DNA of 64,000 nucleotides from a virus. Every line of letters starts with the position of its first letter. The first letter of the stretch is position 1. Of this stretch, positions 1 to 18,600 are shown piece after piece. The stretch is taken from positions 1-64,000 of IMG/VR virus record IMGVR_UViG_3300005683_000016. One strand, 5' to 3'. A model generated the notes under the pieces. That model had not been told where the DNA came from. It ran no database searches and saw only the letters and a program-made list of their open reading frames with translations. Position numbers and translations under genes: made by a program.

Positions 1-1433
1 TTTTGAAATTTTCTTTTTCCATACACAGAATCTAACGGAGCCTTATCTTTAGAAAAGAAAATGGCGTTACTGTTTCCTTTTTTAACTTTACTAAAAAATC
101 CATCTGTAAAATTACTTTTAAATGTTTTTATATCTTCATCAGAGCCATGCCAAACCCGATATTCATTTGGTTTTAATGTACTTCCTGTAATCTCTGTAGA
201 TAAAGAATCAGAACCAAGTTGGTAAAATTTTTGCTGACTTTCCTCGATAAATTCAATAGCAGGATCAACAACAGTCTTAATTTCAATGGGATATTCTTTT
301 TTAAAAAAGTCTTTAATAAAGTTCCATAAATCAGTAAACCACTTTTTAAATTGCGATAATTCAGCAACTCTAACTAATTCTGTAGTAGTACCAAATACCT
401 TATCTTGCACAAGCATTCTTAAGTATTCATCTACAACTTGTCTACCTATTAAAGGGACATCAAAGTTATATAACCGAACAACTCTATTGAGAATGGAAGG
501 ATTAGATTCGAGATGTTTTCCTACTATTTTATAATCGTTTTCAGAAAGTTGTTTATGAAATATTAAATGGATAAGTTCTTCACTTACAACGATATTTAAA
601 TATTCTTCAATATTGGGTAATCTATCTATTTCAAGTTGATCTACTAATCGTTTGGGATTAATATAAAGATTACCACCATAGACAAACATTGATCTGTTTA
701 AACTATCTGTAACTCTGATCTGAACGTCTCCCAATTTAGATTTGATAAAGTCAAATAGTTTTCCATTGAAACTATTTGAATACAGTCCTTCGACAATAAA
801 TGATAAGGTTTTGTACTCCCTTTCCATCTTTGAGAAGTCTTTATCAAAGATTGATTGGATAGAAACTCCAGAAAGTCTTTTGTACAGGGAAGAATATGAT
901 TTAATGGTGTCACTGGATAACTGTAAGGATTTTTCAAAGTCATAACCTGTTGTAGAGTTATCAGATAAGGTACCCCATACCATTCTTTTGCTGTCAGAAA
1001 AGATGTCTGATAACTTGTTTGAACTGCTTGCTGCAATTGTTTTCTCCCTTGCTTTGTCTCTAATAAAGGAAATAAGTGGGGATATTCTTTGATTTCTTGA
1101 TACAGTTGTATCTGATTCATTAATAGACCTTTGTGCATTACCAGAAAGTTGTTTTTCGTATAGTCCTAATTCTTTTCTTTTCTCGTCTATTCTATCTAAA
1201 ACTTTGGGATTAGGAATTGCTTTTAAGTTGTTTTGAGTAATATCTCTAATCCAAGGTTTTCCTGATATGTTATACGCTTTGATAGATTCTTGTTCTAACT
1301 GATCTATTGCTTTGTCAAAAGTAAGAGAATCAATAATAGTTAAGTCTTCTGAAAGTGCTCCAGTGACTTCAGTTAAGAAATATCGTGAATTATCTAAGGA
1401 CGATTTAAAAGGAAGAGTACAATTTAAGTTCAT
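1..1433 (-). CDS. Giant polyvalent/ejected virion protein, N-terminal part only (runs off the window edge); degenerate zincin-like domain followed by an ART-PolyVal-like ADP-ribosyltransferase domain
   Basis: Not in the ORF track. ATG at 1433 overlaps the stop of the upstream gene (TAATG) and the frame stays open to base 1 (MNLNCTLPFKSSLDNSRY...). Contains EELIH (567-581), EYLRMLVQDKVFGTTTE and RVWHGS...AIFFSKD. Confidence 0.85.
   Translation of the reverse strand, partial: MNLNCTLPFKSSLDNSRYFLTEVTGALSEDLTIIDSLTFDKAIDQLEQESIKAYNISGKPWIRDITQNNLKAIPNPKVLDRIDEKRKELGLYEKQLSGNAQRSINESDTTVSRNQRISPLISFIRDKAREKTIAASSSNKLSDIFSDSKRMVWGTLSDNSTTGYDFEKSLQLSSDTIKSYSSLYKRLSGVSIQSIFDKDFSKMEREYKTLSFIVEGLYSNSFNGKLFDFIKSKLGDVQIRVTDSLNRSMFVYGGNLYINPKRLVDQLEIDRLPNIEEYLNIVVSEELIHLIFHKQLSENDYKIVGKHLESNPSILNRVVRLYNFDVPLIGRQVVDEYLRMLVQDKVFGTTTELVRVAELSQFKKWFTDLWNFIKDFFKKEYPIEIKTVVDPAIEFIEESQQKFYQLGSDSLSTEITGSTLKPNEYRVWHGSDEDIKTFKSNFTDGFFSKVKKGNSNAIFFSKDKAPLDSVYGKRKFQ
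698..1138 (-). CDS. Putative overprinted (+1 frame) small protein nested in the giant protein gene
   Basis: 146-codon same-strand ORF. Paralogous to 5385..5714, with the stop codon at the same aligned position. Confidence 0.55.
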   Translation of the reverse strand: MHKGLLMNQIQLYQEIKEYPHLFPLLETKQGRKQLQQAVQTSYQTSFLTAKEWYGVPYLITLQQVMTLKNPYSYPVTPLNHILPCTKDFLEFLSNQSLIKTSQRWKGSTKPYHLLSKDCIQIVSMENYLTLSNLNWETFRSELQIV

Positions 1434-15680: not shown

Positions 15681-18600
15681 TTAACACTCTAACTTAAATT
15701 TGTTTTTATTTATGTGATCTCTGAATAAAGGAAGCAAAGATGTGTTCTTTTTTAGAAAAGATTTAATCTTCTGATCCATTTCGTCTATTACTGGTTCAGC
15801 AGGTTGTTTTGTAACTATAGGTTCACCCTCAGTGAATACTTGTTTGAACTGTTTATTAGGTAGTTTATTAAAAGGAGTTTTAAGTCTTTTCAAGTCTCCT
15901 AACGTAAGTCCTTCCTTAGTTTTAATTATTCTGGTTTTCTGAAATCCATCTTCAAAGATAGAATATACATCTGCTTCTGCTCCAAAGTTTTGAGGTTCTA
16001 TCCAATGAGTGTTAGGATAGTTTTTAATCTCGTCTTTTGAAAAGGTTTCTTGTCCTAACTGATAAATAGGTTTAGGTTGAGGTTTTTCTCTTTCAGGAAG
16101 TTTTTTAGAAAGATAATCATCTACAGGGTCGTTTTGTTCTTCCGTCGGTTTTACTCCCACTACCACTTCAGCAGCCTTTACCAAAACCCCGTCTTTTAAT
16201 ATCTGTGGACTTTTTGTTGATAAAATAGTATCTTCTTCTACTGAATAATCAGGACGATATTCTACTACTATTACTTTCATCCCTTCGTTAAACCTTTCTC
16301 CAGTAAGGTCTTTATATGTATATCCTTGGTCTGCAAGTTCTCGTTCTTTTTGCTCTATAAAACTTTGTTCTTCTTTAGTTATTGCTTCAGGAGAGCGTTT
16401 TATGTTTTGTTTTATTCTATGAATGGCCGTTAATATTTCTATCGGATCAGAAGATCCTTCTATTGTTTTCAAATGAGTTAACACTTGTTTTCTTCCTTTT
16501 ACCACAGGAAGAAGCATTTGAGCCTCTGGTGTAGATTTAACTATTTCCCCATTCTTATCTACTTGGTAAATGTTTCCTCTGTCATCTTCTACTGTTGCTT
16601 CATTTTCAAGAAGACTTTTGACAGTAAATAGTCTACCGTCAATCATAACATCCTTTCCTATCTCGAATTTGGAAAGAGGATTTATGTTAGGAACAGTCGG
16701 AGATTGTTCTACATAAGGTTCTTTGTTCTCTTCTGCTTCTTCGTTAACTTTAAGGATTTGTTCTTGAATATCTTCTGGTTTTTCAGATTCAGTTCTTTCT
16801 TTGACCTCTTCATTAAGATTTAAGTCTTTAATTTCCTCCTTGATTTTTTCTTTCTTAAACCTATCGAACTGCTCTTTTGAAACTTCTTCGTTTATAACAA
16901 GTTCTAAAAGTTCCTCCTCCTGCTCTTTAGAGAGTTTTTCTAAAGAGTTATAATAAGACAAAAGTTTATCATAATACTCTGTAGTTTTTTCTACTTGTTG
17001 TTTTGCTTGTCTTAATTGAAGTTTAGGATCAATTTCAGATTGATCTGTTACTGCGTTGGAAAGTTCTTCATAGTATTTAACTTGACGAACTAAGTCTTTA
17101 AGTTGAGCATGTTTAAAGTCGAGATAGTTTTTAAAACCTCTTTTTGATCTTGTCAAGTTTCCAAGATAAGCAATACTGTTGTCTTTAATCCCTAAAGACT
17201 TGAGATTCTGTTGGTTGTTAAGAATCTTTCCTTTGGTGTGTCTTAATAGAGATTCGTTTCTTGCTACCACCTCCTTAAAGTCGTTAAAGAGGTTTTCTTC
17301 AATACTGTTAATTTGAGACTCTTCATCGGTAGAAAACGCTTCTCTGATCCTTTTTAAGAAAGGATTGGTGGTATAAGGATTGTCCTTATAATAAAAGTTA
17401 ACCTTCTCTATGTCTGCCTTGACATTTTCTGCGTCTTCAATAAGTTGATTAACAAAAGCATCTCTTTCTAGTTCAGAAGTGAATTGTTTTCCAAATCCTT
17501 CGTTAAACTCTTTGAGATCTAGTTCTTTGAGATCGTTCAAAGAAGATAAAAAAGAATCATAAGAACCTAACTTTAGGTTATCGTGAACACTTGAATATAA
17601 AGCATCGTGCGCTGCTATGACTTCAACTGAGTCTTGATTGTTTAGGTCTATAGAAGATTGATATTGTTTAACTGTAGAGTTAAACCTTTTGTAACTATTC
17701 TCAAGATAGTTTACAGCACTTTCTGATCTGGTTCTTCCCTTGGTTAAAAGGGGGATAGAAGCAGGAGCACCCATTAAGAAACCTGTTAGAGAACCTATTC
17801 CTACGTTTTGCCAAAACTCATCATCAGTTAAAGTTTCAGGAAGATTCTCCATCAAGTAGGAGAGAAGATCAGATTTAGTTTTAGGATTTACTCTGTTAGC
17901 GTAGTAATCGTGAACAGACTTTCCTATGTGGTATTGAAGACCTTCTTCAAGACCTTCAGAAAAAATATCCTTGAGGGTTTCTTTTCCTATCTTTTTAAGA
18001 GCCTCTTTGGTAGAAAAAGTAGAGATTGCTTTTAATCCTTCCTTGGTTGCTTGAGTCTTTACAAAAGATTCTGCTCCTTTGATTATTCCTTTTCCCATTA
18101 TAAGGTTAGGAAACTGAAGCAAGTTGGAAGCAAGAATAACAGGCAAGTTTAAAGCAGTAGTGTATTTACCTGCTTTTTCTGCTCTCTCGTTTATCTCTTG
18201 AAGAGTTTCAGGATCAGTTTCATTTCTATAAATAGCGTCTTCCAAAAGTTGTTTCTTGGTATCCAACCATGTATGATACCCTTCAACAAATGCTTCTCCT
18301 TGAGCAGTAAAATAATTAATTGCTGCGTATCTACCTGCTGTAGTTATCTTAGAAAGAGCAGAGATTTCTAATCCTTTACTAAAGTTTTTGGTAAGTTGTG
18401 CTGCTGCTATAATATCATCGGTTTTGTCTGCTCCTTTTGCTACTTGTCGAACCATCGAGAATAACTTTGGTGACAAAGAACGAATCCTATTAATAGCACT
18501 TACTGTAGTTGCTGGTGAAGAAGTTCCTCCTGTTGCTACTGTGAGCAAAGCATCAGCAGTTAATCCTGCTGTAAGAGCACCCATTGAGAAACCTATATTC

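Follow-up and report, generated by a model that had tools for sequence, protein, structure and literature searches.

Paired end cysteines at the breaks of the virion RNA polymerase block point to an end-to-end, probably disulfide, tether between cargo proteins of crAss-like phages

Three giant proteins, encoded on the minus strand of one stretch of viral DNA, contain almost no cysteine, and nearly all of the residues that they retain are placed at ends facing another protein of the set; the question raised by this locus is what such end cysteines may be for. The stretch analysed (the window) is the first 64 kb, positions 1 to 64,000, of the 142,038-bp virus record IMGVR_UViG_3300005683_000016, rated complete by CheckV. 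The three proteins are called here A, polymerase and B, and the genes directly concerned, with sizes in amino acids (aa), are the following:

15681..19196, minus strand: protein A (g1171, 1171 aa), orthologue of crAss001 gp47 and phi14:2 gp67
15246..15671, minus strand: ORF141, a free-standing gene of predicted Hint (intein-like) fold, located exactly in the A/polymerase break
4870..15240, minus strand: virion RNA polymerase (3456 aa, MKCTL start, ATG at 15240)
3..1433, minus strand: N-terminal 477 aa of protein B, orthologue of crAss001 gp49

The sole Cys of A is its last residue, C1171, in the tail ...NKFKLEC (codon TGT at 15684-15686, followed by TAA). The polymerase contains three, Cys 3 (15232-15234), Cys 2048 (9097-9099) and Cys 3453 (4882-4884), the latter four residues from the C-terminal end (...KICTNI), while the single Cys of B, in 2382 aa, is residue 5 (1419-1421), within the start MNLNCTL. 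Taken together, the 7009 residues of the three proteins include 5 Cys against about 84 expected from the genome-wide content of 1.2%, and 4 of these 5 fall no more than 5 residues from a junction-facing end (P ~2e-10 under uniform placement). The terminal pattern is thereby confirmed as far beyond chance. The counts given in the earlier note, which also reported three further proteins, g496, g686 and g870, as devoid of Cys (0 each), proved correct throughout when the codons were rechecked.

The genome is assigned by its marker genes, a portal (phrog_6547, 1e-70) and a match to a major head protein, to the crAss-like phages; all structural genes are carried by the minus strand. Its nearest annotated phages share only about 25% protein identity, no near-identical phage record was found by megablast, and a pattern scan of IMG/VR did not find relatives of A or ORF141. 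The B gene spans both contig ends (window 1-1433 and genome 136323-142038), from which the record, though classed linear, is understood as a complete circularly permuted genome cut within this gene; the alignment of the homologue P0133 to B is gap-free over residues 421-540, i.e. across the contig join.

By sequence similarity, A, polymerase and B are identified as orthologues of the virion RNA-polymerase cargo block of Crassvirales. BLASTP relates A to crAss001 gp47 (3e-13), the polymerase to phi14:2 gp66 (1e-9) and crAss001 gp50 (2e-8), and B to crAss001 gp49 (6e-12 and 8e-10), and tblastn matches A to the "RNA-polymerase subunit" of cr128_1 and cr85_1. The catalytic motif of the polymerase, DYDYD at residues 2147-2151 (8788-8802), is of the two-barrel DxDxD type. 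Searches of Pfam and PHROGs gave no match for A, B, g870, g686, g496 or ORF141, nor did a PDB sequence search for A, polymerase or ORF141. The names "channel protein" for g1171 and "effector" for B, under which the earlier note had placed them, find no support: g1171 corresponds to gp47, an RNA-polymerase-associated virion protein, and B to gp49. Their packing in the virion and their ejection would follow by analogy with phi14:2 and crAss001, where they are known from mass spectrometry. Additional modules were observed in the polymerase, namely a zincin-like motif, HEIVH, at residue 672 and, at residues 2805-2964, a stretch resembling DprA; orthologues (P0076-P0107) swap other modules between the conserved head and tail, such as PIF1/AAA_30 helicase, ART-PolyVal, AlkB-like and DUF1768.

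The end cysteines are conserved in orthologues. Among 67 homologues of A, 64 carry a Cys within the last 6 residues, often preceded by an acidic residue, with a Cys content of 0.006% elsewhere; the other 3 break off before the conserved tail and are probably truncated. None of the 67 has an N-terminal Cys. C1171 is invariant in a 38-sequence alignment (28-95% identity), in which just one other column is invariant over the last ~460. In 20 orthologues of the polymerase (27-93% identity) C3 and C3453 do not vary, C2048 is conserved to at least 90%, and C3453 is the sole invariant column in the last ~750. B begins with a head domain of about 95 aa, with the pattern MxCxLPxKxxxxNS+xFL; a Cys is found at residue 3-6 in 31 of 32 proteins starting with this domain, and the full-length B homologues (n=9, 2100-2800 aa) all have an N-terminal Cys and in no case a C-terminal one. 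Internal Cys content across the families ranges from 0.005 to 0.055%, to be compared with 1.2% genome-wide. Since C1171, C3 and C3453 are invariant at 27-95% identity amid varying surroundings, the end cysteines appear to be under selection. An AlphaFold2 (AF2) model of a natural 145-aa protein containing the B head domain reaches a confidence score (pLDDT) of about 90 for residues 1-97, and its comparison with the PDB by Foldseek gave no fold match. Some B-family proteins (P0125, P0128, P0131, P0152) have a tail Cys which is not terminal, being followed by a conserved extension of about 67 residues; a search of the ESM Atlas with the extension of P0128 returned no usable match.

The same arrangement, with a Cys at the C-terminal end only, at both ends, and at the N-terminal end only, recurs in cultured crassviruses. 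In phi14:2, gp67 has 1 Cys (last residue), gp66, the catalytic polymerase, exactly 2 (residues 3 and -2, negative numbers counting from the C-terminal end) and gp65 1 (residue 3). In crAss001, gp47 has 1 Cys (-3), gp50 has Cys at 5, 1334 and -9, and gp49 has 1 (5). The triad is found in cr128_1 despite a different gene order and opposite strands, and it fits the IAS virus on the assumption that gp055 represents the N-terminal portion of its polymerase, gp056. The layout of p-crAssphage differs, gp45 ending in ...SCM and gp44 starting with MSC and lacking a C-terminal Cys. In three related genomes both layout and Cys pattern match the window gene by gene. Conservation of the terminal cysteines in orthologues, on which the earlier note had made its proposal depend, thus extends down to 27% identity.

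The phi14:2 proteins are annotated in their record as separate virion proteins identified by tandem mass spectrometry (MS/MS) proteomics, and the accessible text of 10.1101/2020.03.07.982082 places gp67, gp66 and gp65 in virions and describes their fusion into a polyprotein in some phages. According to the accessible sections of PMC10172136, the virion cargo of crAss001 includes gp47, gp49 and gp50, inter-subunit disulfides join structural proteins elsewhere in the particle, a 47-47 homodimer bond is among the disulfides of the structure, and ejection order is probably set by interactions between cargo proteins. The end cysteines, or a link among the three cargo proteins, are not mentioned in the accessible portions of these two papers, and a search of the accessible papers found no description of a Cys-linked cargo chain. 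Relative to the cargo block of phi14:2 and crAss001, the window has in common the orthologous trio, the DxDxD polymerase in the middle and the end-only cysteines; it differs in that its pieces are larger and that other genes, one of them with a predicted Hint fold, lie in both breaks.

A comparison between broken and fused forms bears directly on pairing. A search for longer relatives of A yielded about 92 proteins of 3.8-4.9 thousand aa in which A is fused to the polymerase. None of the fused proteins has an N-terminal Cys or a Cys pair at the would-be junction, while a C-terminal Cys is present in 91 of 95. Over the ~2000 residues between the end of A homology and the start of polymerase homology, 66 of the 92 contain no Cys at all; a single internal Cys, some 80 residues ahead of DxDxD, is retained in most fused proteins. 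Where the next gene was inspected, the C-terminal residue again faces a Cys-bearing start: in Fpv1 the fused gp33 (4401 aa) has its sole Cys at -2 and the next gene, gp34, starts with MAC, and at the relative locus L013 the single Cys of the fused protein is its last residue and the next gene starts with MATC. From the Cys counts of the fused proteins and these next-gene starts, it appears that where the polymerase block is broken a Cys stands on both sides of the break, and that fused junctions have none. Leftover "scars", in the form of adjacent Cys pairs, were not found in unbroken giant proteins beyond the conserved polymerase Cys region.

New breaks in relatives of the window follow the same rule. 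A GIY-YIG homing endonuclease gene is located in four breaks, either within B (loci L011, L012, L014) or within the polymerase (L016). The piece upstream of such a nuclease gene ends with (I/L)(I/L)x(I/K)(D/K)C, and the piece downstream starts with MxCx(Y/I)x(F/Y)xGxxY. This head motif, which pertains to the breaks of the relatives and not to the window's own, is missing from 11 unsplit B proteins, which suggests that these ends arrive with the cassette. A detached piece of 229 aa in L016 retains the polymerase's original "-4" tail (KTTKCSIM). A search of the window, L011, L012 and L014 against Rfam gave no intron at gathering score, and the gaps beside the nuclease genes, of 0-50 nucleotides (nt), make an intron further unlikely, leaving too little non-coding DNA for one. 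The window's own breaks, occupied by ORF141 and by an amidase with two other genes, gave no match to a nuclease family.

The nucleases in the relatives' breaks are related to one another and to two adjacent GIY-YIG homing endonuclease genes observed in the window at 23862-24974 and 25149-25967 (minus strand), between g686 and g496; the identity of these two to the nucleases of the cargo-gene breaks is 27-53%. No gene split by the two was detected in the window. The possibility that g496 and g686 are a nuclease-split pair was rejected, as g686 alone spans the whole orthologue.

The nearest precedent is offered by NrdA of Aeromonas phage Aeh1, split by the homing endonuclease gene mobE, in which element-derived tails are needed for assembly (PMC3045599). 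As in the relatives' breaks, a nuclease gene there splits an essential gene in the absence of intron or intein, and new C- and N-terminal tails come along. The Aeh1 tails are non-covalent and not Cys-tipped, whereas the crassvirus tails and heads each hold one of the very few Cys of their protein, and their cassette is present at several sites within two genes.

The A/polymerase break of the window is of a different nature. A gene of the ORF141 type is present in 9 of 9 loci of the clade, always between an end of the form ...x(L/I)xC and a start MxCxLxIxDP. Its relatives are 41-97% identical, with 40 invariant positions in four aligned members (41-65%). ORF141 is not Cys-depleted, having 4 Cys, and five translated members have 3-4. 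By sequence it gave no match to Pfam, intein models included, or to a PDB sequence profile, and AF2 modelled it at low confidence (pLDDT 54). When the model was compared with 48,161 PDB chains by VIA-align, ranks 1-28 were taken only by inteins and Hint domains, headed by the NpuDnaB intein (4o1r_A, Z 8.1, root-mean-square deviation 3.8, 114 aa) and the hedgehog autoprocessing domain (1at0_A, Z 8.0), the next fold reaching Z 3.8; ESM Atlas features matched Intein_splicing/PT-HINT clusters at 0.87-0.90. A Hint (intein-like) fold is therefore predicted, from a low-confidence model. The canonical catalytic sites are degenerate, with S/A/T/E rather than Cys at position 1, C/Q at the His position of TxxH and no terminal HN; the family members end in LLVV, LIYI, LLIV or LLIS. 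ORF141 is moreover a separate open reading frame (ORF) with its own start and stop, joined to neither flank, and for both reasons is not regarded as an active intein.

The A/polymerase break in this clade is read as a decayed intein, in which the former Cys1 and Cys+1 sites would now be represented by C1171 of A and C3 of the polymerase, and the Hint protein may hold the ends of A and polymerase during assembly. Disulfide formation by the catalytic cysteines of intein precursors is known (PMC4031507), and "fractured genes", whose intein halves are separated by a free-standing nuclease, have been described (PMC2677866). The window resembles inteins and split inteins (PMC2677866, PMC4031507) in that a module of predicted Hint fold lies between an upstream Cys and a Cys starting the downstream protein, the flanking residues being comparable to the catalytic cysteines able to form a disulfide (PMC4031507). 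It differs from them in that ORF141 is a gene of its own, without catalytic residues and joined to no flank, and in that the other breaks are without any Hint part. A conserved gene, of predicted Hint fold, filling the A/polymerase break is new here and had escaped the earlier note.

The comparative data point to an end-to-end tether between cargo proteins, not described before and probably a disulfide. A reading in which head-to-tail disulfides join the separate proteins into one thread is favoured, with a probability slightly above even. A (gp47/gp67-like), polymerase and B (gp49/gp65-like) would be the pieces of what in other phages is a single polyprotein, each purged of Cys, like ejected proteins, except for one at every end facing the next piece. 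An upstream tail, with alternating hydrophobic residues and terminal Cys, would dock on a downstream head, formed by M-x-Cys and alternating hydrophobics, and the two thiols would then form an interchain disulfide, probably when the particle encounters an oxidising environment. The product would be an unbranched thread, A-S-S-polymerase-S-S-B, which could be packed in fixed stoichiometry, drawn through the tail in order and separated into its subunits in the reducing cytoplasm; the end-only placement of Cys fits passage through a narrow tail channel. The breaks themselves would have been made by selfish elements, in relatives by GIY-YIG cassettes equipped with their own Cys-tipped tail and head, and in the A/polymerase break of the clade by an intein, whose Hint domain would survive as a separate conserved gene. 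C-terminal-to-N-terminal pairing in the order A, polymerase, B, as put forward in the earlier note, thus has strong comparative support from invariance, from the recurring triad, from the fusions and from the new breaks. The gene order also holds, with the amendment that the genes are not adjacent, ORF141 lying in the first gap and an amidase, a fibre-like gene and a phrog_13925 gene in the second.

Two known systems help to place the thread so conceived. In Schitoviridae a giant virion RNA polymerase and its companions (N4 gp50, DEV gp71-gp73), which cross the envelope, are purged of Cys (PMC11445570), as are the presumably ejected proteins of the window, so that the avoidance of Cys invoked in the earlier note as typical of ejected proteins is indeed known. 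Those proteins have essentially 0 Cys, the few found being judged annotation errors, and no terminal pairs are reported (PMC11445570), whereas the window keeps one Cys per facing end. In two-chain toxins such as the clostridial neurotoxins, as presented in the accessible part of PMC6899712, a disulfide holds the chains together in translocation and cytosolic reduction frees them, which is the logic proposed here. Nicking of a single precursor yields the toxin chains, whose internal bond has been demonstrated by experiment (PMC6899712, same part); the chains of the window are products of separate genes and their bond would run end to end.

Several observations weigh against a disulfide thread. 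The host cytoplasm is reducing, which is a difficulty for bond formation, especially in phages that infect anaerobes of the gut. Searches for thiol oxidoreductases in the genome gave neither a thioredoxin nor a glutaredoxin; the one for a sulfhydryl oxidase (Erv1/Alr) does not bear on this, its control having matched nothing. The pairing rule is imperfect, as seen in p-crAssphage gp47, in the IAS virus and in the split of a g870 orthologue in L016. The first of these (L008:5588-8161, 857 aa) has a lone Cys at -2, for which the adjacent genes offer no evident partner with an N-terminal Cys; it is either an exception or the sign of another partner. The IAS virus proteins have many more internal Cys. 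The g870 orthologue (L016:2162-4833) comes in two parts, of 559 and 311 aa, separated by 56 nt that contain no gene, and its break is free of Cys; behind this lies either a genuine split lacking Cys or a frameshift in the assembly. In the AF2 model of the natural 145-aa protein, which combines head and tail, the tail is disordered and unpaired with the head. Finally, it may be that all split forms belong to one clade and all fused forms to another, in which case independent events are fewer than sequences.

Other explanations must account for the same evidence. The pairing data would be equally expected if tail and head were linked by something other than a disulfide, with the thiols sharing a metal ion or, at the break containing the Hint gene, with the Hint protein catalysing a thioester or a true ligation of A to polymerase. 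The location of this conserved gene, exactly between a C-terminal Cys and an MxC start, and the acidic residue often preceding the tail Cys are in keeping with such chemistry, but one Cys per side provides a metal with two ligands only, with no conserved His or second Cys nearby, and the Hint protein lacks Cys1, the His of TxxH and the terminal HN, besides being absent from most lineages showing the rule. Native ligation chemistry cannot run to completion, since the head Cys, at residue 3-5, is not the free N-terminal residue. A link of this type is considered unlikely. Quite unlikely, too, is that the end cysteines are not paired with each other, each being tied to another part of the virion, such as Cys-rich portal, inner capsid or tail proteins, or forming homodimers. 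The joint loss of both junction cysteines in fused forms would then be unexplained, as would the outer chain ends without Cys (0/67 A N-termini, 0/9 B C-termini) and the gain of one Cys per side at each new break, and a fixed bond to the virion would hinder ejection; to its credit are the structural disulfides of crAss001, with the 47-47 homodimer bond, reported in the accessible sections of PMC10172136, the lone C-terminal Cys of p-crAssphage gp47 and the Cys-rich virion proteins encoded nearby.

The presence of the Hint gene in a break, the tails and heads carried by the cassettes themselves and the assembly of Aeh1 NrdA through mobile-element tails without a covalent bond (PMC3045599) would all suit a view of the cysteines as inert relics of gene-breaking elements, i.e. 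the Cys1/Cys+1 of a lost intein or the ends of a cassette, with the pieces held, if at all, by non-covalent docking as in that protein. Nearly all other Cys have been removed, yet the end Cys are invariant in variable tails at 27% identity, and they recur in lineages with no element left in the break; as a neutral relic would have been lost, this explanation is held to be improbable. An artefact, by chance, by wrong starts or stops, or by introns or inteins making one gene look like several, is very improbable indeed. A and ORF141 do lie in one frame, with a single TAA between them, and an upstream TTG could lengthen the polymerase ORF, but the probability of the pattern in the window is ~2e-10, the ATG start and the stops agree among orthologues, no Rfam intron was found, the phi14:2 proteins are annotated as separate and identified by MS/MS proteomics, and the genome shows no enrichment of the shared 8-mer TGTACTCT. 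The idea of a motif at the DNA level as the source of the common "CTL" starts was likewise rejected, TGTACTCT occurring 6 times in 142 kb, about as expected by chance.

For the origin of the breaks a broader and more doubtful proposal can be made. Pairs of Cys-tipped tails and heads might be a third way, beside introns and inteins, by which selfish elements avoid doing harm when they insert into an essential gene. A giant cargo gene would be cut by a nuclease cassette, or by an intein in decay whose Hint domain becomes a trans-acting assembly factor, and the element would supply a redox-switchable "pseudo-peptide bond", rejoining the pieces as a single thread to be packaged and ejected and opening in the cytoplasm; all A/polymerase/B breaks of Crassvirales would descend from such events.

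The other genes of the cargo region are the following:

3996..4847, minus strand: membrane-anchored N-acetylmuramoyl-L-alanine amidase (Pfam Amidase_2, 3e-14), in the polymerase/B break
2869-3615, minus strand: tail-fibre-like gene, 0 Cys, in the polymerase/B break
1433-2635, minus strand: gene for a phrog_13925 protein, in the polymerase/B break
19197-21809, minus strand: g870, Cys-free, cargo-like, upstream of A
21820-23880, minus strand: g686, Cys-free, cargo-like, upstream of A
26514-28004, minus strand: g496, Cys-free, no family match

The amidase, located in the polymerase/B break, is itself no part of the chain; its position is the same in the relative loci L001, L002, L003, L011, L014 and L016. 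The fibre-like and phrog_13925 genes are present in L003, L011 and L016 and absent in L001 and L002. Orthologues of g870 and g686 in L001, L002 and L003 have 0-1 Cys each.

A second giant protein, of 3512 aa, is encoded at 39625-50163 (minus strand); it is Cys-poor (5 Cys, 0 terminal), and its N-terminal part includes a hydrophobic stretch. A match to phrog_12121 covers the last ~70 residues, which are also similar to the C-terminal end of a neighbouring 231-aa protein (38923-39618), both proteins terminating in ...TIVE(I/V)K. At 35590-36510, 36547-37422 and 37460-37924 (minus strand) three small proteins, with Cys-rich N-termini and the C-terminal endings GISYFIT, GVSWYVD and GISFFVE, are encoded; they are probably paralogues.

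Crassviruses, the most abundant human gut phages, have about 5 MDa of protein to load and inject, among it the polymerase which starts the infection. An end-to-end tether, if true, would give the order of ejection a physical basis and would explain how the cargo block can work as one, two, three or more genes. It would also be a new example of release under redox control after translocation; combined with the nuclease cassettes and the gene of predicted Hint fold, it would amount to a new means by which mobile elements offset the harm of breaking a gene.

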